From: a virus
Taxonomy: Duplodnaviria; Heunggongvirae; Uroviricota; Caudoviricetes
DNA length: 26,759 nt
IMG/VR virus record: IMGVR_UViG_2531839665_000020
Coordinates: 1 to 26,759 of that record
Reading direction: 5' to 3' (one strand)
In this document: in pieces, positions 1 to 16,018 of the stretch
How the letters are laid out: every line of letters begins with the position of its first letter
Position numbering within the stretch: the stretch's first letter is position 1
Notes under the pieces: model-generated
The model's input: only the letters and a program-made list of their open reading frames with translations
What the model was told of the DNA's origin: nothing
Database searches by the model: none
Translations under genes and position numbers: made by a program

Positions 1-381
1 ATGCAGAAAAATGTGACTCCCGGCAGGCGAAAAGGCTGCCCTAATTATCCTCCCGAATTTAAACAGCAGCTCGTTGCTGCCTCCTGTGAACCCGGGATAT
101 CCATCTCAAAACTTGCTCTTGAAAATGGCATTAACGCCAATCTGTTGTTCAAATGGCGACAACAATGGCGCGAGGGAAAGCTGCTATTACCTTCTTCAGA
201 GAGCCCCCAGCTACTTCCTGTGACTCTCGATGCAGCTGCCGAACAGCCAGAATCGCTCGCAGAGGACCCGGAAACCCTCAGTATCAGCTGTGAGGTAACG
301 TTCCGGCACGGGACGCTCCGCTTCAATGGCAATGTCAGCGAAAAGCTCCTGACTCTGCTGATACAGGAACTGAAGCGATGA
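1..381 (+). CDS. IS66-family accessory protein orfA (TnpA-like)
   Basis: 126-aa ORF starting at base 1; N-terminal helix-turn-helix-like region (KQQLVAASCEPGISISKLALENGINANLLFKWRQQW) typical of IS66 orfA; stop overlaps the orfB start (ATGA at 378-381). Confidence 0.85.
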   Translation: MQKNVTPGRRKGCPNYPPEFKQQLVAASCEPGISISKLALENGINANLLFKWRQQWREGKLLLPSSESPQLLPVTLDAAAEQPESLAEDPETLSISCEVTFRHGTLRFNGNVSEKLLTLLIQELKR

Positions 382-725
382 TCCCGTTACCTTCCGGGAC
401 CAAAATTTGGCTGGTTGCCGGTATCACCGATATGAGAAATGGCTTCAACGGCCTGGCTGCGAAAGTACAGACGGCGCTGAAAGACGATCCCATGTCCGGC
501 CATGTTTTCATTTTCCGGGGCCGCAGCGGCAGTCAGGTTAAACTGCTGTGGTCCACCGGTGACGGGCTGTGCCTCCTGACCAAACGGCTGGAGCGTGGGC
601 GCTTCGCCTGGCCGTCAGCCCGTGATGGCAAAGTGTTCCTTACGCAGGCGCAGCTGGCGATGCTGCTGGAAGGTATCGACTGGCGACAGCCTAAGCGGCT
701 GCTGACCTCCCTGACCATGCTGTAA
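378..725 (+). CDS. IS66-family orfB (TnpB)
   Basis: 115-aa ORF with IS66 TnpB signature ([22 protein letters not shown] ... FIFRGRSG); translationally coupled to orfA. Confidence 0.9.
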
Positions 726-774
726 ATCTCTTTATCCTGGTTGTCACAGAATAAGCCCGGTAAAATACGGGCTT

Positions 775-2313
775 ATGAACGACATCTCTTCTGACGACAT
801 CTTCCTGCTGAAACAGCGCCTGGCCGAACAGGAAGCGCTGATCCACGCCCTGCAGGAAAAGCTGAGCAACCGGGAGCGCGAAATAGACCATCTGCAGGCG
901 CAGCTGGATAAACTCCGCCGGATGAACTTCGGCAGTCGTTCCGAAAAAGTCTCCCGCCGTATCGCACAAATGGAAGCCGATCTGAACCGGCTTCAGAAAG
1001 AGAGCGATACGCTGACTGGTAGGGTGTATGACCCGGCAGTACAGCGTCCGTTGCGTCAGACCCGCACCCGTAAGCCGTTCCCTGAATCACTACCCCGTGA
1101 CGAAAAGCGACTGTTGCCTGCGGCGCCGTGCTGCCCGAACTGCGGCGGTTCACTGAGCTATCTGGGCGAGGATACCGCCGAACAGCTGGAGTTGATGCGT
1201 AGCGCCTTCCGGGTTATCCGGACGGTACGGGAAAAACATGCCTGTACTCAGTGCGATGCCATCGTGCAGGCACCTGCACCTTCGCGGCCCATCGAGCGGG
1301 GTATCGCCGGACCGGGGCTGCTGGCCCGCGTGCTGACCTCGAAGTATGCAGAGCACACCCCGCTGTATCGCCAGTCAGAAATATACGGCCGGCAAGGTGT
1401 GGAGCTGAGGCGTTCACTGCTGTCGGGCTGGGTGGATGCATGCTGCCGGCTGCTGTCTCCGCTGGAAGAGGCGCTTCATGGCTATGTCATGACTGACGGC
1501 AAACTCCATGCCGATGATACCCCGGTCCAGGTACTGCTGCCGGGTAATAAGAAGACGAAGACCGGGCGGTTGTGGGCGTATGTTCGTGATGACCGCAATG
1601 CAGGGTCAGCGTTGGCACCTGCAGTGTGGTTCGCTTACAGCCCGGACAGAAAAGGCATCCATCCGCAGACTCATCTTGCCTGCTTCAGCGGTGTGCTGCA
1701 AGCGGATGCGTACGCCGGGTTCAACGAGCTGTATCGCAATGGTGGGATAACGGAAGCTGCCTGCTGGGCTCATGCCCGCCGAAAGATCCACGATGTGCAC
1801 GTCCGCATCCCGTCAGCACTGACGGAAGAAGCCCTGGAGCAGATCGGTCAGTTGTACGCCATAGAGGCGGATATAAGGGGAATGCCGGCAGAGCAGCGGC
1901 TTGCTGAACGTCAGCGAAAAACGAAACCGTTGTTGAAATCCCTGGAAAGCTGGTTGCGTGAAAAGATGAAGACCCTGTCGCGACACTCAGAGTTGGCGAA
2001 GGCGTTCGCGTACGCACTTAACCAGTGGCCGGCACTGACGTACTATGCGAACGATGGCTGGGTGGAAATCGACAACAACATCGCTGAAAATGCCCTGCGG
2101 GCGGTCAGTCTGGGTCGTAAAAACTTCCTGTTCTTCGGCTCTGATCATGGTGGTGAGCGGGGAGCGCTACTGTACAGCCTGATCGGGACGTGCAAACTGA
2201 ATGACGTGGATCCAGAAAGCTACCTTCGCCATGTGCTTGGCGTCATAGCAGACTGGCCGGTCAACCGGGTCAGCGAACTGCTTCCGTGGCGCATAGCACT
2301 GCCAGCTGAATAA
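775..2313 (+). CDS. IS66-family transposase (orfC)
   Basis: 512-aa ORF with N-terminal leucine-rich coiled coil, CxxC...CxxC zinc-finger region and DDE-type core, following orfA/orfB as in IS66. Confidence 0.9.
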
Positions 2314-2396
2314 CACATCCCCGTCAATACGGCCCTCGCTGTACGCTTACGGTATTTCTGACTCATGGCCGTTTTTATAATGCGGCCAGGTGTTTT

Positions 2397-2747
2397 TTAC
2401 AACATTGTCAGGGCGTTAAGGCGGGATGTTTTTGGCTGACGCCAGTCCAGCTTATCGAGGAGCATTGCCAGTTGCGAGCGGGTAATGGATACCTTACCGT
2501 CACGCACCGCAGGCCAGATAAACTGGCCTTCCTCCAGGCGTTTGGTGAACAGGCACAGACCATCAGCATCAGCCCAAAGAATTTTAACGGTGTCCCCCCG
2601 TCGGCCACGGAAGATAAACAGGTGACCGGAGAAGGGATTATCATTCAGCACATGTTGTACCTGTTCTCCCAGTCCGTTGAAGGATTTACACATATCGGTA
2701 ACGCCGGCAACGAGCCAGATACGGGTACCTGATGGGAGTGAAATCAT
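2397..2747 (-). CDS. IS66-family orfB (TnpB), second copy
   Basis: 116 aa, MISLPSGTRIWLVAGVTDMCKSFNGL..., clearly paralogous to the 378..725 product but diverged. Confidence 0.85.
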   Translation of the reverse strand: MISLPSGTRIWLVAGVTDMCKSFNGLGEQVQHVLNDNPFSGHLFIFRGRRGDTVKILWADADGLCLFTKRLEEGQFIWPAVRDGKVSITRSQLAMLLDKLDWRQPKTSRLNALTML

Positions 2748-3169
2748 CTTCCCCTCCCGCTCAGTTCGCGGATTAACATCGTGAGCAGCTCTGGCGATGG
2801 ATTTTCCAGCGTCATGTTACCGTGACGGAATTCCACCTTGCAGGAACTGGCACTGACTCTGGTCTGAGTGGAAGTGGATAAAGACGGCGCAATGGCCGCC
2901 ACAGGTTCTTTCTGCTCATCCGGCGTTATTTCTACAGGTAATAATTCAACGCCAGTGTCAGAAGAGGTTGTTACCGGAAGACGCCGCGAAACATGCCCTT
3001 CGTTCTGCCAGAGCCTGAGCCATTTGAAAATAACATTATCATTGACGCCATTTTCTCGTGCAATCTGTGTAACACAAGCTCCAGGTTGTGATGCCAGTTC
3101 AACCATACGAAGTTTGAATTCATTCGAATACTTTTTACGAGGTTCTTTTCGCCAGTCCTGTAATTCCAT
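2744..3169 (-). CDS. IS66-family orfA, second copy
   Basis: 141 aa with the same HTH-like motif (EFKLRMVELASQPGACVTQIARENGVNDNVIFKWLRLW); ATGA-type overlap with downstream orfB. Confidence 0.8.
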   Translation of the reverse strand: MELQDWRKEPRKKYSNEFKLRMVELASQPGACVTQIARENGVNDNVIFKWLRLWQNEGHVSRRLPVTTSSDTGVELLPVEITPDEQKEPVAAIAPSLSTSTQTRVSASSCKVEFRHGNMTLENPSPELLTMLIRELSGRGR

Positions 3170-3296
3170 ACTTAGATGTCCGTCTGTGTCAGATGGGCGT
3201 CTAAGTTACCAATTCTTGTCTAATGGCTACATACGGCGGTCGGTTTACGCTTACTCTAATTCGTCAGATTCTGACCAGACGGTTCAGGCTGTACGC

Positions 3297-3431
3297 TTAC
3301 GATTCTTTAGGCAGATAATAATTTTGATCAGCCCATTCAACTGCCGTCATTGGTACAACCCTGACCAGAGGCTGCAGCGCAACCGAAACGGCAGCCATCA
3401 TATTATTCAGTTGTTGCTCTGATATATTCAT
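3297..3431 (-). pseudogene. Terminase large subunit (gpA-like), N-terminal ~44 codons only, truncated by IS66 insertion
   Basis: Translation MNISEQQLNN...PMTAVEWADQNYYLPKES matches the lambda gpA N-terminus pattern (MNIS...TAVEWADANYYLPKES); the reading frame runs into the IS66 terminus at 3300 and stops at 3297; start overlaps the 3' end of the Nu1-like gene. Confidence 0.7.
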
Positions 3432-3912
3432 CGAGTAAATCCGGTAATTTATCCCCTGCCCGCGCACACTGATTTGCCCCCTTAGCAATAAGGGTTTTCA
3501 GATGGTCAAGATGGCGCGGTGTTAAATCAGGAAACTGTCGCTGCATGGATAAAGGGATGGAATCAAGCGTACTGGATAACGCCATTGCCAGCTTACTGAG
3601 GGCAAAAATACAGAACCCGGTGTCAATAAGTTTTCCTTTTGACACCTCATTTTTTAACTGCTGTGTAACAGCCTGTTCTGCTGTCAGTTCCCATCTGGCA
3701 ATAAGCAATTTCTCCTCATAGTCGTCTTCGCTATCGCCATCAGGCACATCGTTTTTACTTCTCCTCAGATACGATATGTAAAAATCGCGCCAGGCATCCA
3801 GATCCAGTTGCCCTCGCTTATTCGATATCGGGGCACCCGGCAATTTCTGCAATCTGCGAAGCTGGCGATCGGTCAGACTTAAATGCCTGGCAACTTCAGT
3901 CTGCGTAGCCAC
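3403..3912 (-). CDS. Terminase small subunit, Nu1-like
   Basis: 169 aa; C-terminal region (TGFCIFALSKLAMALSSTLDSIPLSMQRQFPDLTPRHLDHLK...LLDEYI) resembles Nu1/NohA; GTG start preceded by GAGGTGAGGA; cos site immediately upstream. Confidence 0.8.
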   Translation of the reverse strand: MATQTEVARHLSLTDRQLRRLQKLPGAPISNKRGQLDLDAWRDFYISYLRRSKNDVPDGDSEDDYEEKLLIARWELTAEQAVTQQLKNEVSKGKLIDTGFCIFALSKLAMALSSTLDSIPLSMQRQFPDLTPRHLDHLKTLIAKGANQCARAGDKLPDLLDEYIRATTE

Positions 3913-3954: not shown

Positions 3955-4120
3955 CCGGTCATGTCCGGTTTACATGTCCGTTTTTTGCACATGTCCGGTT
4001 CACGGACAGCCTGTTTTTATATTTTTCATATAGTTAACTTGCAGAGAAACCGGACATGGATCCCGGAAAATTTTCATAAATAGCGAAAACCCGCGAGGTC
4101 GCCGCCCCGTAACCTGTCGG
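3955..4120 (-). other. cos site: cosN cohesive-end sequence (4096..4107) plus cosB-like repeated terminase-binding motifs (3955..4060)
   Basis: Reverse complement of 4052-4120 reads CCGACAGGTTACG/GGGCGGCGACCT/CGCGGGTTTTCGCTATTTATGAAAATTTTCCGG, matching the phage lambda right-end/left-end junction as I recall it; three direct CATGTCCG(G) repeats (3960, 3973, 3990) and one inverted copy (4050) lie between cosN and the Nu1-like gene. Confidence 0.85.
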
Positions 4121-4613: not shown

Positions 4614-4928
4614 TTAGCATTTTTTTGACCGCGCGTTTCCGGACGTATTCTGTTCTCCTGTCCCTTTATATCGTCGGAATACCCGCCGCTCTTCAAATCC
4701 CATTCCCAACTCAGAATGTAGTCTGTTGACCGCTTGTTTTATTTCGGTCAGGTTCACCGGTGAAACCGGAGTCCGGCGCGCCTTACGCAAACACTCTGCT
4801 CGTTTCTGTGCCGCCACTTTTCTTTTCTGGTCATCACTTAGCTGTACCATCACTTTTGCCCATCGTTCAGCTGCTCTCCGGTACAGTCCTTTTTTCTCCA
4901 GACATTCTGCCACGTGATCATGTAGCAT
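4614..4928 (-). CDS. PerC-family transcriptional regulator (Pch-like)
   Basis: 104 aa; motif LEKKGLYRRAAERWAKVM matches the PerC/Pch signature; ATG preceded by GGAGG; long A-tract-rich region upstream. Confidence 0.7.
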   Translation of the reverse strand: MLHDHVAECLEKKGLYRRAAERWAKVMVQLSDDQKRKVAAQKRAECLRKARRTPVSPVNLTEIKQAVNRLHSELGMGFEERRVFRRYKGTGEQNTSGNARSKKC

Positions 4929-5100
4929 AAGTGACCTCCGATTATCTACAGACTGCCATCCTGAATTTACCTTCCCTTAATGAAATAACAATAAAAAACA
5001 AACCACGCAAAAACAATAAAATAACACACAAAAAAAACTAAATAATAAACAAAAATAATCACCTTATTTTATTATTTTTTGAGGGGGCAATTACTGAACA
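4929..5100 (-). promoter_or_regulatory. AT-rich, A-tract-rich upstream region of the PerC-like gene (probable promoter / curved DNA)
   Basis: Dense A-tracts (e.g. 4980-5090) directly upstream of the gene; compositionally unlike flanking DNA. Confidence 0.4.
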
Positions 5101-5393
5101 AAAAACGCTGACTATATACTCAAAACCAAACAACTATTCTGCCAATCAGGTATCATGGCAACACACGGAATTACCGTGTTTTTGCCTTCTCTGCCCATAC
5201 AATACGGGCATATACTTCATACTCTATTGTAATATTTCTATCCATGCGCCCCACTCCATTTACCTGTAAATAATATTCAAAATATTTATCACAGAAATCG
5301 TTTTTGTCCATGAACTGAGCACACTATAAAGTCCGGAACTGACTCTTTGTTAAATTACCTTAACGTTACCAGTAACACCTTCATAACAAAACA

Positions 5394-5861
5394 TCACGGT
5401 ATACACTGGGTACGGATATATTCCTGTGCTCCTTCCAGTTGCTTCTGCATTGCCATCAGCCGTTCTCTGAGGATGAAATAATCCCGTTCAGCGGCTTCTG
5501 CCAGTCGGGGACCGGTTGCATTATCCACGCCGGAGGTGATGGGGGCTTTACGCAAGGAGCCTGGACAGTTGGCGTTGATGCGCAGGCGCTTACGACCAGC
5601 GGCAACATCAGCACGCAGAGTTTCATTTTCAGCTCTCGCATCGGCTAATTCCCTCGAGTATCTGGCATCAAGTGCAGCGACATCACGCTGGCGTACCTGC
5701 ATATCAGTAATTGTCACGTTCGCCAGCTTCAGCTCACTGGCTTTTTTATCGCGTTGCGCTTTGTAGGTAATGGCGTTATCGCGGTAATGATTCAGCCCCA
5801 GACTAAGCACACCACAGGCTACCAGCAGGACAATAATCACCACACACAGAACACGGTTCAT
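5394..5861 (-). CDS. Rz: Spanin inner-membrane subunit Rz
   Basis: 155 aa; N-terminal TM segment followed by [25 protein letters not shown]...[10 protein letters not shown], a close match to lambdoid Rz. Confidence 0.9.
5456..5641 (-). CDS. Rz1: Spanin outer-membrane lipoprotein Rz1 (embedded in Rz, +1 frame)
   Basis: 61-aa ORF nested in Rz; lipoprotein signal (LPLVVSAC) then Pro-rich stretch ([16 protein letters not shown]) typical of Rz1; exact start (M1 vs M6) uncertain. Confidence 0.75.
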
Positions 5862-6012
5862 ATCCCCCTCACCCCACCAGCCATGACAAAGTTAAGACGC
5901 GCCAGGCAGTGGAAAAGCAAATAGCAACCAGCATTAGTGAAAATGAAATGCCGACGATTACACAGAGGATCTTCGCCAGCGTTATGAGCTTGTCTGACAT
6001 GCTTAATCCTCT

Positions 6013-6195
6013 TCACGATTTCAACGCAATGACCAGTTTTGCCAGCCCATACAGCATCGGAGACACAGCAATACCGACCGCCACCCACTTAATAGCAAAA
6101 GCCAGCGCTCTGCTGACGTCATCAGTTACAGGCGCTTTCAGTTCAAGGCCGTTTTTCATAGTCAATCTCAACAGAATTCGTTTATACTTTCCCAT
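6013..6195 (-). CDS. Small membrane protein (60 aa), unassigned, between R and Rz
   Basis: ATG at 6195 preceded by GGGAGAA; Lys-rich N-terminus and one C-terminal hydrophobic helix (IKWVAVGIAVSPMLYGLAKLVIAL); the longer ORF-track version (6013..6273) would read through the terminator hairpin, so the internal start is preferred. Confidence 0.4.
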   Translation of the reverse strand: MGKYKRILLRLTMKNGLELKAPVTDDVSRALAFAIKWVAVGIAVSPMLYGLAKLVIALKS

Positions 6196-6227
6196 GTTCT
6201 CCCTTGCCTTACTCAAGGTCAGAAACA

Positions 6228-6267
6228 CAAAACCCCGTTTGCGGCCAACAAACGGGGTTTTACTTTT
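6228..6267. terminator. Bidirectional rho-independent terminator
   Basis: Perfect 9-bp stem CCCCGTTTG / CAAACGGGG (6233-6241, 6249-6257) with 7-nt loop, A-run upstream and T-run downstream, so U-tract on either strand. Confidence 0.6.
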
Positions 6268-6350
6268 ATTCACTTAGTTTTTGCCAGTTCGCAGGATTTC
6301 GTGTTATCCGCCCGCGTTGGCCAACGTCATTTTTCAGCAAAATATTCTGC

Positions 6351-6884
6351 TTATCTGTCAATTCCCCAGCACGCCAGTGCACTTTCCTGGTCTCGCCGGG
6401 ATACCTGACCGTAGCAATTATTTGAGCGGATACGGCAGTCTCTGCCACCGTCCTTAATCCACCAGCGAATCGCTTCGCAGGCACCTTTTCGATCACCTGC
6501 ATTAATCCGTCTGTAAAACGTAGACGGGAAACACTTACCGGGGCCAATGTTATAAGGACAAAATGACGCGATACCCGCCTTCTGGGGTTCGGTCAGCGGT
6601 ACTTTAATATTGCGCTCCACCCACTCCAGCGCCTTATCACGTTCAATGGCGTTAACCTGGTCGCACTTTTCCTTCGATAACTTCATACCCGGGACGACAG
6701 GCTTACCATCCACTCGGGTGGCACCGCGGCAGATGGTCCAGATCCCCGCACCATCACGGTATGCCGTGGTGTGGTTACCTTCTTTTTCGTCAAGAAACTG
6801 GTCGAGGATTTCAGGCGCAGACGTCCCTGCACCAATCAGCGCCAGAACGGCAGCCGACAGGCCGTATCTGATTTTTGCGTTCAT
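6351..6884 (-). CDS. R: Endolysin R, SAR-type lysozyme (T4-lysozyme-like fold)
   Basis: 177 aa; N-terminal signal-anchor-release-like segment (YGLSAAVLALIGAGTSAP) and catalytic E/D/T region (EGNHTTAYRDGAGIWTI) as in phage 21 R. Confidence 0.9.
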   Translation of the reverse strand: MNAKIRYGLSAAVLALIGAGTSAPEILDQFLDEKEGNHTTAYRDGAGIWTICRGATRVDGKPVVPGMKLSKEKCDQVNAIERDKALEWVERNIKVPLTEPQKAGIASFCPYNIGPGKCFPSTFYRRINAGDRKGACEAIRWWIKDGGRDCRIRSNNCYGQVSRRDQESALACWGIDR

Positions 6885-7009
6885 GGATATTTATCAGGAT
6901 TTATCGGTTCCGGACCCCTGGATATGTTAAGTCTTCAGCCCGCCGGTGGTGGGCACTGGCGTAAACCCAACAATGTGAGATGGCTGCCTCGCAAAGATAA
7001 TGAACAGAT

Positions 7010-7273
7010 ATGAATGAAGAAAATACAGCGCTTTTTGACAGAATTTTCACTCTTGAGTTACAGGTCGGTTTTCTTCTCCCAAAGATAATCAAAGCCATGG
7101 ATGCACTTGGTAAGAATAACGCTGTGTCAGATTACCTGATCGCCGAAATGGAACATCTCATTAAAGAAATACCAAAGACCGATGCTCGTGATGATAAAAG
7201 ATTCCTCAGGGCTGCTGAAAATGCTCTTTCAACAGTGAAGCGCAGTTCAGGCGCGCAGCTAATTCAAGAATAG
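7010..7273 (+). CDS. Hypothetical protein (87 aa), convergent with the 7206..7736 gene
   Basis: AT-rich ORF with protein-like helical composition; weak SD; 3' end overlaps the opposite-strand gene by 68 bp. Confidence 0.45.
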   Translation: MNEENTALFDRIFTLELQVGFLLPKIIKAMDALGKNNAVSDYLIAEMEHLIKEIPKTDARDDKRFLRAAENALSTVKRSSGAQLIQE

Positions 7274-7736
7274 TTTCTTTCATTTCATCTGCTGCAAGCA
7301 CCTCATTTTTTGTTGGGGTGCTTTTTTTCAATTCAGTAACACAGCACTCCAGTTTTTCAATACGTGATTCAACATCATCTTTTTCTGACCGCAGTGTTGA
7401 CGGCGGCATCTTCAGAGAACAAGTAATTCTTCCCGGTAGCTTTCCTTTGTAGGTTATCAACACATCCTGCGCCTCTAAAATTACGGGGCGATTTTCCGGC
7501 AACGGACCATCCCCTTCACATAACCCGGCAGCAACATCCATGAAAAACTGCTTCGCCTGCTTTTTCGCCTCAGCTTCGTAAAACTCCAGCGTGGCACCTT
7601 CAGTACGGTCAAGACTAATCGCCACATCTGGCAACAACAGTGACGGATACCCACCAATTTCCAGTGCCACAGTAACAGTAATCTTATCCGGGTAATTATT
7701 TATCCCTTTAACAACCAGTTCGTATTTTTTCTTCAT
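7206..7736 (-). CDS. Hypothetical protein (176 aa) inserted between holin and endolysin
   Basis: ATG 5 bp downstream of the holin stop with GGAGAG SD (translationally coupled to S); lower-GC codon usage than flanking lysis genes; no domain recognised. Confidence 0.65.
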   Translation of the reverse strand: MKKKYELVVKGINNYPDKITVTVALEIGGYPSLLLPDVAISLDRTEGATLEFYEAEAKKQAKQFFMDVAAGLCEGDGPLPENRPVILEAQDVLITYKGKLPGRITCSLKMPPSTLRSEKDDVESRIEKLECCVTELKKSTPTKNEVLAADEMKETILELAARLNCASLLKEHFQQP

Positions 7737-7740
7737 CGCT

Positions 7741-7956
7741 TTACTCTCCCCGCGCCGCCTTACGACGGTCCTCTCTGATTTTGAAATACAGGTTAGTCAG
7801 ATATGTCAGCAGCCCAAACAGCAGACTCCCCAGCACGCCTATTGCCGCCCACTGAGACGGAGAGACTTTGTCCAGCAGCTGCAGGAACCAGTAGCCCGTT
7901 CCCACCGCTGACGTGGTGTATGACACACCTGTTGTGATTTTTTCCATCTGGTACAT
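7741..7956 (-). CDS. S: Class II holin / pinholin S (phage 21 S-like) with dual-start motif
   Basis: 71 aa [71 protein letters not shown], very close to S21; Met1/Met4 dual start. Confidence 0.9.
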
Positions 7957-8031
7957 ACCCCGTCTCTCGCAATCCGGAAGCTCACAACAACAGGAGGGGC
8001 ATCAGCTCACACCGACAGCCCCTGCGCATGG

Positions 8032-8301
8032 TTACATCATCATTTCGCCGTCAGGCTGAGGCTCACTGCTACCGTCAGGCTGAGACACGACGCCATCTGA
8101 AACAGCACTGTCACCCGCGCCGTCTTCAGGCTCAGGAGCAGCCGGTCCCCCCAGCAGCTCATCCAGAATGGCATCCACTTCAGCATCAAGACGCGCCTCA
8201 AGATTCTGGCGGAGTTGCTGTTTCAGTGCGCTTCTGACTTCTTCAGAGCGCAGGACGTCCTTCACTGCTTCAGCAGTGACCAGAGATTTTATTTCTGACA
8301 T
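8032..8301 (-). CDS. Acidic hypothetical protein (89 aa)
   Basis: Internal ATG at 8301 chosen because the longer ORF (to 8457) overlaps the upstream 60-aa gene; product MSEIKSLVTAEAVKD... with Asp/Glu/Pro-rich tail. Confidence 0.55.
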   Translation of the reverse strand: MSEIKSLVTAEAVKDVLRSEEVRSALKQQLRQNLEARLDAEVDAILDELLGGPAAPEPEDGAGDSAVSDGVVSQPDGSSEPQPDGEMMM

Positions 8302-8338
8302 GGGATTTTCTCGTTGAAAGGTGTTGTTAAGAAAGTTG

Positions 8339-8521
8339 CTACGAAATGAGAGGCTCTTCGGGTTTTGTTCCGGCTGACTGGCTGGCGCTGATTTTTTCCG
8401 CCGCCGCGGCATCAATCTTTTTGCGTATATAGTTCCGGATAACCTTATACCCGCCACTTACCAGATATAACGTGCACACCACCGTGCAGAAATACAATAA
8501 AATAAGCTGTACAAATCTCAT
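8339..8521 (-). CDS. Small membrane protein (60 aa)
   Basis: ATG preceded by GGGAGGG; single TM helix (LILLYFCTVVCTLYLVSGGY) followed by a basic tail. Confidence 0.5.
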   Translation of the reverse strand: MRFVQLILLYFCTVVCTLYLVSGGYKVIRNYIRKKIDAAAAEKISASQSAGTKPEEPLIS

Positions 8522-8668
8522 TATCCCTCCCGGTTATTGATATGGTGTTGACATCGTTAATACCTGTTGGTTAAAAAAGTGTCCTGCATGTTTTGCTTTG
8601 GATATAACGACATTTGCCGCCGGTTCTGGCTCCTTGTTTTCCCTGCCCCGGCGGCCTTTTTTTCCTGC

Positions 8669-10606
8669 TTACGGGTTATTCACTTCCACTGTTATACTTT
8701 CAATCAGCACCGGATATGTCGCACCGCTAGTGATATCGGTCACGCGCAATTTGTCTGCCGTAAACGTGCCGACCGGTGACTGTGACAGCATGAACGGCGT
8801 CCCGTCCTTACCATCAATGACCGGCGTCACCTCAATACTGTTGTTACCGGCAAAACGGAAGCCCAGCGTATGCCATTCGTTATCAAATGCGCCGAATGAC
8901 CCCAGCTTCGTGTTCTGACCAGCATTTCCCTTGTGGTACATCACATTAAGGTCTGTGGCATCGCTCTGTACGTAAAACGACGCCAGCAGGTTATGAGCGG
9001 CATTACCTTCCAGTGTGACGCCCTGAGGCAGTGAAGAAACCGGCCAGTACAGCGCCAGTGCGTACTGATTAGCTGTCAGTGTGCCATCAACTTTAAAACG
9101 ACAACTGATAAGCCCGCCCTTCTCCAGCAGGTCTGCGCCATTACCGGCATCATGCTGCATAAACCACGAGGAACTTCCTGTCTGTTTGGTCCACCTCAGC
9201 GCCTTACCTCCTGCAGCACCTGCATCATCAACTACCAATGCACGCCCTCCTTCAGCTCCCCATCCCTGCGGATTCAGTAAACCACCTGACTCTGTTGCAC
9301 GGTAATAAAGCAGCGTTGTCACTGATTTCCCGTCCGTTGACGGTGTTGATGGTGTGTCCGGTGACGGCTTCTCATCCGGCGGCATCACAACCTGTTCCCC
9401 ACCCACCAGTTCAGCCGTCCGTCCTGCATGGAGAAGAATCGCTGAGGCAAGACGGTCAGAAATAATCCCCCTGCGTGCCCATGAGCTGAAATGGCTCGCA
9501 CGGTCTGCTGACGTCCAGTTTGCCGACGTCCGGGAGGCCGCACCGTAATATCCTGATGCCGGAATATCCGGGTCTTCTTCCGGTTTGTTCGTCGGGACAT
9601 TTGCTCCGTTCTCATCGGTCATGAACGGCACAAAGTGAATATTCTTTTCCGTTTTGTTTTTGTAACTGCCGTACACCGTCTGGTAAGTGGATTCGCTCTT
9701 CTGCTTCCAGAAATAAGTTGTGTCTCCACATATCCAGGGAACACCGTCAGCAGAACCACCAGCGCACTGTCCCACCATATCTGCAAGGTCCGTACGATAT
9801 TGTTCCACTACTTCTGTAAAACGGGCTGTGTGATTTGCTGGCGTTCCGTCAAAGTCAAATTCCCCCTGCATCCACACCACGGCAAGCAGCACATTTTTCG
9901 GGTTCTTTGCCAGCGCGGCTTTTGTACGACCGATGAGATCCTTATACAGCGGCCTGCCCACACCCCAGCGGGTAGAACTCTCTGAGGCACCGGTCACGTC
10001 ACTGTATGTTCCATCTGCCCCGGTGGTGAAAGCTGAACCACCACGGCAGCACGGAACCAGAAGAATACCCGCATTCGCCGGTATAAACGGCAGCAGCTTT
10101 TTGGCAATATGCAGCCCCTGCCCCACGGTTCCGTACTGACCTTTCGACAGGTCAGCTTTCGGATGGTTAAGACGGCTCATGTCCTGTACATCATGCAGAC
10201 AGTGGTCTGCCGGAATAATGTCGTTATATTTACAGGGAGCGCCATCCGGCGTCACTGTGCTGCGACGAGCCAGTTGCTTTATACGCGGGTCAGGACGGTC
10301 ATATGTCTGCGGCAGAGGAAGCCCCTCACCGTAAGCCATGCCGTTCGACTGCCCGGCCAGTGGAATAACGTAGTAATAATCTGGCTCCGTGGTGACCACT
10401 CCCGGATAGCCACCATCCCCCGTGCCGGGCACAACCACTGGCGTGGTCACATCCCCCTCCGCGGCAATCGCCTGCATCAGGGTATAAGGGGTTATGGCCA
10501 CCGGACTACCAAACGGCTGCCAGCCCTCTTTCAGTTTGTGTGTCAGCTTTTCCGCAAGATCTGACGGCGACGCCGCCCTGACAACATCATAATGTTTAAT
10601 CGACAT
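8669..10606 (-). CDS. nanS-p: Prophage sialate O-acetylesterase NanS-p type (DUF1737 N-terminus + SGNH esterase + C-terminal lectin-like domain)
   Basis: 645 aa; GQSN esterase motif (VIPLAGQSNGMAYGEG); length and architecture match the NanS-p proteins found downstream of stx in EHEC prophages; ATG preceded by GGGAG. Confidence 0.9.
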   Translation of the reverse strand: MSIKHYDVVRAASPSDLAEKLTHKLKEGWQPFGSPVAITPYTLMQAIAAEGDVTTPVVVPGTGDGGYPGVVTTEPDYYYVIPLAGQSNGMAYGEGLPLPQTYDRPDPRIKQLARRSTVTPDGAPCKYNDIIPADHCLHDVQDMSRLNHPKADLSKGQYGTVGQGLHIAKKLLPFIPANAGILLVPCCRGGSAFTTGADGTYSDVTGASESSTRWGVGRPLYKDLIGRTKAALAKNPKNVLLAVVWMQGEFDFDGTPANHTARFTEVVEQYRTDLADMVGQCAGGSADGVPWICGDTTYFWKQKSESTYQTVYGSYKNKTEKNIHFVPFMTDENGANVPTNKPEEDPDIPASGYYGAASRTSANWTSADRASHFSSWARRGIISDRLASAILLHAGRTAELVGGEQVVMPPDEKPSPDTPSTPSTDGKSVTTLLYYRATESGGLLNPQGWGAEGGRALVVDDAGAAGGKALRWTKQTGSSSWFMQHDAGNGADLLEKGGLISCRFKVDGTLTANQYALALYWPVSSLPQGVTLEGNAAHNLLASFYVQSDATDLNVMYHKGNAGQNTKLGSFGAFDNEWHTLGFRFAGNNSIEVTPVIDGKDGTPFMLSQSPVGTFTADKLRVTDITSGATYPVLIESITVEVNNP

Positions 10607-10949
10607 CGAATTTCTCCCGTGTACAGGAACAGAGTTAAAAAGCCGGAACCGGAATCAAATCACAGGATGACCATCTGCCAGTGGCTGGTCGTAAAAAAAA
10701 GGCCGCGCCATGCGCAGCCGGAAATAAAGGGATAACGATGATAGTTTGAGAAAAACAGAAATAACACTTTTGTGGCAAAGCATGGTGCCGGGTGCCTCCC
10801 GGTGAATTCAGTACCAGCACCTGAATCCGCGATTATCCCATATACCTAGTTGCTGATTGCCCCTCCGCACAGGGGGATTCACCATGCAGTAGTATTTTTA
10901 ATAAACAGTAAACAAAAAAATCAAGCATTATGCAGGCTGTTTCTTTTTA

Positions 10950-14765: not shown

Positions 14766-14921
14766 TTACTCCTCAGGTTCGTAAGCTGTGAAGACAGCGA
14801 CCTCCGTCTGGCCGGTTCGGATTCGTACCTCGCAGAGGTCTTTCCTCGTTACCAGTGCCGTCACTATGACGGTTAAACAGATGACGATCAGGGCGATTAA
14901 CATCGCCTTTTGCTGCTTCAT
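14766..14921 (-). CDS. hok: Hok/Gef-family type I toxin (51 aa)
   Basis: MKQQKAMLIALIVICLTVIVTALVTRKDLCEVRIRTGQTEVAVFTAYEPEE matches the Hok family; ATG preceded by AAGGAGAAG; an in-frame upstream ATG at 14978 gives a 70-codon mok-like extension. Confidence 0.85.
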   Translation of the reverse strand: MKQQKAMLIALIVICLTVIVTALVTRKDLCEVRIRTGQTEVAVFTAYEPEE

Positions 14922-14924
14922 AGC

Positions 14925-15010
14925 CTGCTTCTCCTTGACCTTTCGGTCCGTAAGAGGCAATCTATATGTGACGAGCATATAGGGGCCTCACTTCGATTTA
15001 TAGTCGGGTG
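14925..15010 (+). ncRNA. Predicted Sok-like antisense RNA region (approximate)
   Basis: Placed by analogy with plasmid R1 hok/sok: leader elements GCTTGAGGCTATCTGCCTC and GATTGCCTCTTACGG resemble the R1 hok leader as I recall it; exact RNA ends not determinable by eye. Confidence 0.3.
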
Positions 15011-15112
15011 GGGCTTTTATCTATCTGCCGTTGGTGTTCATGCCCGAGGCAGATAGCCTCAAGCACCCGCAGCAATTCTACTTAACTCTGCCGTTACAGC
15101 AAGCCGTTTTCG

Positions 15113-15259: not shown

Positions 15260-16018
15260 TCAAGTGCCTTTCCTGGTCCAGCCATATTTTTTGAATGCAG
15301 GCGCCGCTTCATCGGTTTGTAGCCATTCTGCAAATCGACGGGTTTCATCATTTGCATCCTGACGTACTGTAATGTTCATATCACGCCATATCACGTAGTC
15401 TGGCGCTATTTCCACGACATCACCAATTTCTGGATTACTGGCTGCCCAGTCAGCCCAGGTTATCCAGACATCTGCTTCAGGCTGATTCTCAAGAGCCTTA
15501 CGTGCAGTTCCGCTATTGGGCGCATATAAAATAATATTTTTTCGGATTGCGGCGACAGTTTCTATATTCCCTTTACGTCCGGCAATATCTTCCCAGACGC
15601 CAGTGCCTGATGTATTACTGGTACCACCACCATCATTAACAATTACGCCAATCCCGGGTCTGGTCAGGTCGTCAATACTCCGGATATTTTTAGGATTACC
15701 TTTCTTTACCAGTAAAATACTTTTTCGCAGATAAAGAGGCTGAATATCTTTTTCACTGAAGCTGTCTTTATGGTCCCGAATGATAGCCAGAGCAGATTGT
15801 TCTGATGCGCCAAACAAGATATCTGCATTTTTTTTGGCATCTTCATTCCATTTGTTCTGTGGGCCGTAATGAACGTTCACTATAATACCTGTTTTTTCGG
15901 CATAAAGTTTGGCTGCATCAAGCAAGGCTGTATGCGGGCCACCAGGACCATACAGATTGATATCAGCATAAGCAGCAGAAGACAGGAATATTAAAAAACC
16001 TGCCATTATGTTCCTCAT
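15260..16018 (-). CDS. Orphan periplasmic substrate-binding protein, ModA/TupA-like
   Basis: 252 aa; signal peptide (MAGFLIFLSSAAYA); ADILFGASEQSA and C-terminal AAPAFKKYGWTRK resemble E. coli ModA (ADLFISADQKW; AAEIFKRYGFTIK); no permease or ATPase gene adjacent. Confidence 0.8.
   Translation of the reverse strand: MRNIMAGFLIFLSSAAYADINLYGPGGPHTALLDAAKLYAEKTGIIVNVHYGPQNKWNEDAKKNADILFGASEQSALAIIRDHKDSFSEKDIQPLYLRKSILLVKKGNPKNIRSIDDLTRPGIGVIVNDGGGTSNTSGTGVWEDIAGRKGNIETVAAIRKNIILYAPNSGTARKALENQPEADVWITWADWAASNPEIGDVVEIAPDYVIWRDMNITVRQDANDETRRFAEWLQTDEAAPAFKKYGWTRKGT

Follow-up and report, generated by a model that had tools for sequence, protein, structure and literature searches.

In prophage Sp4 of O157:H7 Sakai, the small-terminase gene nu1 is disrupted by an insertion sequence (IS) and cos is kept; packaging continues nonetheless and most likely depends on the terminase of Sp14, a co-resident prophage whose cos is nearly identical (Asadulghani et al. 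2009, PMC2669165). We describe here a prophage that resembles Sp4 in being lambda-like, in having its terminase inactivated by IS insertion, and in having retained cos. It lies in a stretch of 26,759 nucleotides, positions 1 to 26,759 of IMG/VR record IMGVR_UViG_2531839665_000020, which we refer to throughout as the window, and the gene concerned is the one for the large terminase subunit, gpA. The best explanation, to which we assign a probability of roughly 0.8, is that positions 1-3431 represent the joint of a lambda-like packaging module (cos, the Nu1 gene and the start of gpA) with a cluster of IS66-family elements that had already been formed before it met the phage. Taken as a whole, the feature is ordinary IS-driven prophage decay, built from known elements in a known arrangement, and no new system or mechanism is required to account for it.

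The truncated terminase gene and its packaging module

The truncated large terminase gene, gpA', occupies 3297..3431 on the minus strand. It consists of 44 phage codons (3431-3301 plus the G at 3300) and a TAA stop codon contributed by the IS tip: the minus-strand open reading frame (ORF) from 3431 to 3300 is MNISEQQLNNMMAAVSVALQPLVRVVPMTAVEWADQNYYLPKES, its product is a peptide of 44 amino acids (MNIS...YYLPKES), and the stop at 3299-3297 is part of the tip G|TAAGCG. The start of the gene overlaps the Nu1 gene (3912-3403) by 29 bp. All 44 residues are identical (100%) to residues 1-44 of the intact 642-residue large terminase of strain UTAK-6, and the peptide is 59% identical to residues 1-44 of lambda gpA (E 9e-16). 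The initial annotation had read this frame as a gpA-like gene that overlaps a Nu1-like gene, runs into an IS66-type tip at 3300 and is cut after 44 codons; the ORF and the tip together confirm that description, and the frame at 3297-3431 does align to the gpA N-terminus as had been supposed.

Comparison with the intact gene places the break to the base. The gpA gene of UTAK-6 continues ...AAAGAATC|TTCATATGG, whereas the window reads ...AAAGAATC|GTAAGCG; in codons, the intact gene has ...CCT AAA GAA TC|T TCA TAT GG and the window has ...CCT AAA GAA TC|G TAA GCG TAC AG. The break point is thus 3300/3301, and among the complete E. coli genomes searched, 5,042 show phage homology that starts exactly at 3301. 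An IS tip is joined here exactly to target DNA, as in simple IS transposition. Because the UTAK-6 protein carries its GpA_ATPase domain at residues 48-293 and its GpA_nuclease domain at residues 323-601, gpA', which ends after residue 44, contains neither the ATPase nor the endonuclease domain that a functional enzyme has.

None of 5,426 complete E. coli genomes contained the gpA/IS junction itself, nor did the GTDB species representatives or metagenome contigs; in IMG/VR it was found only on a second contig of the same genome. The base that follows AAAGAATC (window 3300/3301, the third base of gpA codon 44) is variable: among 49 IMG/VR loci it is T in 33, C in 13 and G in 2, the remaining locus being the IS junction. 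We also note that draft contigs of other strains often end exactly at the 3300/3301 position with no IS present. The ends of four short draft contigs, exactly at window position 3301, had at first been taken as a sign of widespread insertion. This was rejected, because the base after AAAGAATC is polymorphic and gpA fragments of 36-48 amino acids at contig ends are common, so that allelic branching explains the contig ends.

The remainder of the packaging module supports the earlier claim that cos and Nu1 are intact. The small terminase gene (3403..3912, minus strand) encodes a Nu1-like protein of 169 residues that matches the extent of WP_000235436.1 in UTAK-6 and is recognized by Pfam Phage_Nu1 (E 1e-18); it is 46% identical to lambda Nu1 over the C-terminal half. 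The cosN region (4063..4107, minus strand) is a run of 45 consecutive bases, read from 4107 to 4063, that is identical to lambda bases 1-45, and the 12-nt cohesive-end sequence GGGCGGCGACCT stands at 4107 to 4096. Between cosN and Nu1 lies a cosB-like region (3960..4058, minus strand), likewise intact, in which the motif CATGTCCG(G)TT recurs approximately four times, once in inverted orientation (repeat families D12, D16 and I6); these repeats probably serve this phage type as the cosB sites to which Nu1 binds. The combination of a cosN with lambda cohesive ends and an intact Nu1 gene is that of a lambda-type cos and small terminase.

The IS66-family cluster and its likely source

Repeat analysis identified three IS66-type termini (...TACGCTTAC), which end at 2350, 3254 and 3300, and we therefore count three IS pieces rather than two. 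The initial annotation had called two IS66 elements in opposite orientations. The assignment to the IS66 family stands, as does the opposite orientation of the copy at 1-2350 (ISEc8, plus strand) and the second copy (ISEc23-like, minus strand), but the count had missed a third piece, a stub of 46 bp from the left end of ISEc8. This stub also displaces the second copy from the position that had been given to it: the copy with orfA and orfB had been thought to touch gpA, yet it ends at 3254, and it is the stub that touches gpA. Read from the phage side, the order is gpA codons 1-44, the 46-bp stub, the 5' part of the ISEc23-like element and, within the tnpC of the latter, a complete ISEc8.

The ISEc8 at 1..2350 (plus strand; copy 'b') represents bases 93-2442 of the 2,442-bp element and is 100% identical to a copy in strain JB2 (NZ_CP182203.1), which has that full length and is named in RefSeq as 'IS66-like element ISEc8 family transposase'. 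The first 92 bp of the element, including the left inverted repeat, lie to the left of the window, and 31 of them are present in the source contig. The copy carries tnpA (1..381, plus strand; 126 residues; Pfam HTH_Tnp_1, E 1.6e-12; NCBIfam IS66-like TnpA, 97.7 bits against a cut-off of 74), which overlaps via ATGA with tnpB (378..725, plus strand; 115 residues; Pfam TnpB_IS66, E 1.2e-38; NCBIfam IS66_TnpB, 120 bits against a cut-off of 50), and an intact tnpC for the DDE transposase (775..2313, plus strand; 512 residues; Pfam DDE_Tnp_IS66, E 2.1e-106). The tnpC product also has the LZ, zinc-finger and C-terminal IS66 domains and scores 459 bits with NCBIfam transpos_IS66 (NF033517), for which the cut-off is 180. 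The right inverted repeat (2325..2350, plus strand; repeat family D2) has its tip at 2350 (...GCTGTACGCTTAC) and aligns with the left repeat; with the left tip read in the identical JB2 copy, the two ends agree in 13/13 terminal bases and share a CCGT motif. The features that define an IS66 element, namely three genes with an overlap, a DDE transposase, GTAAGCG termini and an 8-bp duplication, are all found for this copy, and it is complete and apparently functional.

The ISEc23-like piece (2351..3254, minus strand) is the 5' 904 bp of its element, with the left inverted-repeat tip at 3254, and is interrupted at 2350/2351 by ISEc8. It is 99.8-99.9% identical to the efa1-island copies of O103:H2 12009 and E2348/69, the element in E2348/69 being 2,504 bp long, and 96.8% identical to a copy annotated as ISEc23. 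Its genes are tnpA (2744..3169, minus strand; 141 residues; Pfam HTH_Tnp_1, E 1.2e-12), tnpB (2397..2747, minus strand; 116 residues; Pfam TnpB_IS66, E 5.3e-35) and the first five codons of tnpC (MSQKY; 2351..2366, minus strand), an N-terminus shared with the full ISEc23 TnpC of plasmid NZ_CP144927.1 and of E2348/69. With only the left tip, tnpA, tnpB and these five codons, the window does not hold a complete element; what is missing either lies past ISEc8, as it does in JB2, or is absent. Identities between ISEc8 and the ISEc23-like element are 66% for TnpB, 38% for TnpA and approximately 65% for tnpC DNA, and by these values the two are clearly distinct elements.

We can also revise the view that the ISEc23-like copy had lost its orfC. 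The gene is split by ISEc8 after codon 5, and in JB2, the sole identical relative, the remainder of tnpC is found on the far side of ISEc8. The 8-bp target duplication GGTATTTC is present on both sides of ISEc8 in JB2 and as a single copy in the uninterrupted element of E2348/69, and window positions 2351-2358 are the right-hand copy. A search for 8-bp duplications, which had been suggested as a check, has thus yielded one, seen by way of JB2, for the insertion of ISEc8 within the ISEc23-like element. The piece that abuts the phage, the ISEc8 left-end stub (3255..3300, minus strand; tip at 3300), corresponds to bases 1-46 of ISEc8 and is identical at 46/46 positions to the left end of the JB2 ISEc8 and to ISEc8 ends in >4,000 records.

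Where the cluster came from is indicated by the distribution of its internal joint. The joint of the stub with ISEc23 occurs in 65 of the 5,426 complete genomes, and in the three that were inspected (E2348/69, O103:H2 12009 and JB2) its neighbours are a fragment of an IS256-family transposase and then efa1/lifA. JB2, which alone among these has ISEc8 inside ISEc23, matches window positions 1-3300 with zero mismatches. Because the stub/ISEc23 joint is old in efa1/lifA islands and because JB2 is identical over 1-3300, there are strong indications that the cluster was pre-formed elsewhere and that it shares its descent with the efa1/lifA-island copies. We propose that the stub/ISEc23 joint and the insertion of ISEc8 into ISEc23 would both have been made in a locus of the efa1/lifA-island type, as in JB2, and that the cluster would then have been joined to gpA via an event at the tip of the ISEc8 stub. 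That an event at an ISEc8 end made the gpA joint is indicated by the intact IS tip joined to new DNA. The event may have been mediated by transposase, either as movement of the cluster as a unit or as an IS-mediated deletion or inversion, or it may have been a plain insertion of ISEc8 followed by recombination within the 46 bp.

A complete nest, in which an ISEc8 carries ISEc23 and is movable by its proper ISEc8 ends, was also considered. Such a nest should have a second joint, between the right end of ISEc23 and ISEc8 from base 39 onward, and no contiguous match to this joint was present in the complete genomes; the best matches were in two pieces, approximately 30-110 bp further apart than in the query. 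This candidate was set aside, and since no contiguous second joint was found, the stub seems always to be a solo end. In a setting of a different kind, the IncFII plasmid NZ_CP144927.1 from raw milk has at 4909-10631 an ISEc8, an inverted 167-bp ISEc8 fragment, a complete ISEc23 and an ISEc8 3' fragment, adjoining lpxM; nests of ISEc8 and ISEc23 evidently recur on plasmids.

Ownership of the junction and possible routes into gpA

Read in reverse, the window corresponds to the beginning of draft contig AFAA02000029.1 (assembly GCA_000194495.2, 328 kb); the 13.4 kb that were compared show no mismatch, and this contig ends 31 bp to the left of window position 1, inside ISEc8. Two further contigs of the assembly bear on the junction. 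AFAA02000009.1, which belongs to a different lambda-like prophage with a 203-residue Nu1, ends in the same gpA'/stub/ISEc23 junction (9817-10462), and the two prophages are identical over the last 315 bp before it. The third (IMGVR_UViG_2531839665_000006; 19,854 bp; IMG/VR taxon 2531839665) starts 25 bp before the gpA start codon and encodes an intact gpA of 642 residues, which has 5 amino acid differences from the UTAK-6 protein and is identical to it over the first 47 residues; head and tail genes then follow. Compared with the second-type prophage of JB2, this third contig shows 99.0% identity over 11.2 kb and has the same allele right after the junction; against the UTAK-6 prophage its identity falls to 97.2% over the first 6.9 kb and 95.2% over the next 4 kb, and against the O103:H2 gpA remnant to 97.6%. 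The intact gpA thus most probably belongs to a second co-resident prophage. A full-length gpA for the window's own prophage, which would overturn the truncation, is probably not what the assembly contains, the similarity of its intact gpA being to the other prophage.

Several points weigh against our explanation, and we gather them here. The end of the draft contig hides the remaining part of gpA, the other end of the cluster and any target duplication. The junction recurs on a second contig, and a third carries an intact gpA, so that ownership of the junction rests on the assembler, as it must where the preceding 315 bp are identical in both prophages. No other public genome that was searched carries the gpA/IS junction, and both the route by which the cluster arrived and the rescue in trans that is discussed below are matters that we infer.

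The assembly could accordingly be read in another way, with the IS junction present only in the second prophage (AFAA02000009.1), or chimeric, and with the intact gene of the third contig being the gpA of the window's prophage. Two contigs that share a junction, and a third that begins within the shared 315-bp stretch and has an intact gpA, amount to two inputs and two outputs in the assembly graph and speak for such an artefact. We nevertheless consider it improbable. The window contig runs through the cluster for 3.4 kb, whereas AFAA02000009.1 reaches only 331 bp past the junction (approximately 460 bp from the gpA start codon) and has one homopolymer error, typical of thin coverage. The break lies exactly at the IS tip, outside the shared sequence, and the third contig is closest to the second-type prophage of JB2 and only 95.2-97.6% identical to the prophages of UTAK-6 and O103:H2, to which the phage arm of the window is 99.8% identical. 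The simplest reading of the assembly graph leads from the window's prophage to the IS cluster and from the second prophage to the intact gpA. The repeat of the junction on AFAA02000009.1 is then probably an over-extension by the assembler, and we are fairly confident that the window's prophage truly carries the junction.

With the junction assigned to the window's prophage, the fate of the remaining gpA codons bears on how the cluster arrived. No second gpA body of this genome is found among the best IMG/VR matches, and the truncated gpA products that might be expected, of 579 and 582 residues, are not recorded for the source assembly; as exact N-terminally shortened products, the 579-residue form occurs only as EHX19500.1 (E. 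coli DEC12A) and the 582-residue form only on one short Logan contig. These are weak hints that the remainder of the gene is gone. As an aside, EHX19500.1 corresponds to gpA from Met64, and IMGVR_UViG_2526164631_000015, equated with its source solely by the equal length of 17,653 bp, has the full 642-residue ORF; the 579-residue form is probably a miscalled start codon and no truncation.

One route is an insertion accompanied by rearrangement or deletion, in which a plain ISEc8 at gpA codon 44/45 later recombined with the stub of the island, or the attack on gpA came from the stub end of a cluster resident in the same molecule. The outcome would be an inversion or deletion: ISEc23 tnpC and island DNA would persist on the left side of the cluster, and what is left of gpA, along with the head and tail genes, would have been lost or carried far away. 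We hold this to be a serious possibility, at somewhat less than even odds. It is in keeping with the failure to detect, for this genome, any gpA remainder of the type that this prophage has, and with the absence of the prophage from the viral contigs in IMG/VR, where two other phage contigs of the genome are listed, although an absence from IMG/VR is weak evidence. Sister prophages of O103:H2 have lost everything past gpA codon 389 via an IS3-family element and have an ISEc23 fragment in the far arm, from which we conclude that IS-driven erosion of this prophage type is recurrent. On the other hand, 46 bp is very short for homologous recombination, a full-length ISEc8 nearby as the recombination partner would yield another gene order, as reasoned from the map, and neither product is directly visible.

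Alternatively, a segment of 3,392 bp, from the left end of ISEc8 (92 bp to the left of the window) to the stub tip at 3300, may have moved whole into gpA from a donor locus of the efa1-island type. This segment has two inverted 46-bp ISEc8 left ends that enclose a complete ISEc8. Such a transposition would account for a stub tip that is an exact IS end fused to new DNA, for the occurrence of the same segment in another context in JB2, for an internal ISEc8 that keeps all three ORFs, and for the failure to find the joint of the ISEc23 right end with ISEc8 base 39 contiguous in any complete genome. What it predicts is a simple insertion, in which the remainder of gpA directly adjoins the cluster on its left and 8 bp of the target (AAAGAATC when read along gpA) are duplicated, giving a joint of the form '...GATTCTTT|GTAAGCGTACAGCC' on the plus strand of the window with the gpA remainder leftward. 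Neither IMG/VR nor metagenome contigs nor complete E. coli genomes yielded the left junction that is predicted (GTACGCTTAC+AAAGAATC+TTCATATGG), and the best IMG/VR gpA loci do not supply the second gpA body that this route calls for. Furthermore, an IS66-family transposase would have to act on two left ends, when the internal ISEc8 has its own right end nearby and that end should be favoured. We regard this transposition as unlikely, without dismissing it. Doubtful to a slightly greater degree is the bolder proposal, the only mildly novel one to come from this locus, that the stub-bounded segment of 3.39 kb is a self-mobilising compound element with half of ISEc23 as a passenger, and that it hopped into one, or even two, prophage terminase genes. 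If this were true, the retained 44-residue peptide might also disturb assembly of the helper terminase.

By far the least probable course is a stepwise nesting in place, the sense in which the elements had been described as nested, with ISEc8 inserting into gpA, ISEc23 into base 46 of that ISEc8 and a second ISEc8 into ISEc23. IS66-family elements do nest, and the ISEc8 in ISEc23 has a clean 8-bp duplication. No complete genome yielded the joint that such a nest should have, however, and the hits at ISEc8 base 46 and at tnpC codon 5 would have to repeat the island positions independently, with 100% identity over 3,300 bp. As three insertions would thereby repeat two exact positions, we reject a build-up within the prophage; the cluster is instead a copy of the efa1/lifA-island arrangement, as its 65 genomes and the identity with JB2 attest.

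Prophage context, packaging and comparison with known systems

The phage arm of the window (3301-26759) contains int, a RecE-like exonuclease gene, DicF, dicB, replication genes, paa, hok/sok, Q, an esterase gene and lysis genes, together with a PerC-family regulator, cos and Nu1. The prophages at ydfJ-rspB of O103:H2-type strains and of UTAK-6 match this arm with 99.8% identity, and the host is an attaching-and-effacing-type E. coli. The adhesin gene paa (15260-16018, minus strand; SBP_bac_11 fold) is virulence-type cargo in the early region, and the PerC-family (Pch-like) regulator of 104 residues (4614-4928, minus strand) lies between the lysis genes and cos. Three RNAs score above the Rfam gathering threshold: the sok antitoxin RNA (14919-15068, minus strand), which adjoins hokD in relatives; the small RNA STnc100 (10747-10913, minus strand); and DicF (22012-22063, plus strand), upstream of dicB.

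For the prophage, the loss of the large terminase in cis is well supported by comparison with the intact gene. It encodes only the 44-residue N-terminal gpA peptide and, because gpA' is without the ATPase and nuclease domains, it can neither cut cos nor package DNA on its own. Work on lambda from the Feiss laboratory is said to have placed the contact between the two subunits in the C-terminal part of Nu1 and the N-terminal part of gpA, and the retained 44 residues are presumably the segment that binds Nu1 in lambda gpA. The Nu1 proteins of the two co-resident prophages share their last 77 residues, and gpA' and the intact gpA share their N-terminus. Given the common end of Nu1 and the identity of the first 47 residues of gpA, a mixed enzyme of the window's Nu1 with the helper's gpA is plausible, and so is a rescue of packaging in trans by the intact gpA of the co-resident prophage. 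The candidate helper differs from the window's prophage in the N-terminal domain of Nu1 and in cosB, so that a rescue would need that particular combination of subunits. The initial annotation had stated that the prophage probably cannot package its DNA unless the rest of gpA is intact elsewhere. This holds to the extent that the terminase is lost in cis, with domains 48-293 and 323-601 missing; trans-complementation is a real possibility, for which Sp4 is the precedent.

We believe that the locus matters mainly for annotation and for the biology of the strain. The truncation explains why a prophage that carries virulence genes (paa and the PerC/Pch-like regulator) cannot package itself, and the inserted DNA can be traced to an IS cluster that is otherwise tied to the efa1/lifA island, a link that may reflect IS-mediated movement or rearrangement of DNA involving both a pathogenicity island and a prophage. 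The case also calls for caution with draft genomes, in which identical Nu1 and gpA starts in co-resident prophages make the assignment of a junction uncertain.

In relation to the systems already described, the locus combines familiar parts. Lambda and the window's prophage agree in cosN (45/45 bases), in gpA residues 1-44 (59%), in the C-terminal half of Nu1 (46%) and in the overlap of the Nu1 and A genes, whereas the N-terminal DNA-binding part of Nu1 and cosB are unrelated to those of lambda, and gpA is truncated in the window. In Sp4 it is the small-subunit gene nu1 that is disrupted, whereas here it is the large-subunit gene, and a rescue here is a prediction from sequence. The IS elements themselves are no different from the ISEc8 and ISEc23 of RefSeq, with the same tnpA-tnpB-tnpC order, DDE_Tnp_IS66 domain, GTAAGCG termini and 8-bp duplication; only their arrangement (a stub, a half and a whole) and their target differ. 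The IS66 cluster of the efa1/lifA islands has the same stub/ISEc23 joint, and in JB2 also an ISEc8 at the same base of tnpC, but in the three inspected islands the stub tip abuts the IS256-family fragment and then efa1, whereas in the window it abuts gpA codon 44.

The closest relatives of the prophage are its sisters, which share with it int, the exonuclease gene, paa, Q, the lysis genes, the PerC-like gene, cos and Nu1. The sister in UTAK-6 is complete, with an intact gpA and a full head and tail morphogenesis module, in contrast to the window, where gpA is cut at codon 44. In one of the O103:H2-type sisters, that of CEC12044, a 377-bp fragment of the ISEc23 left end (4762-5138) lies in the same orientation as in the window, approximately 1.8 kb beyond the IS3-truncated gpA, and adjoins nleG7 and a DinI-like gene. 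The O103:H2-type sisters as a group (CEC12044, UTAK-14 and WL1467) have gpA cut after codon 389 by the IS3-family element and have lost their head and tail genes through deletion. With that cut in the sisters and the IS66 cluster after codon 44 here, this prophage type has been disabled at gpA at least two times independently.

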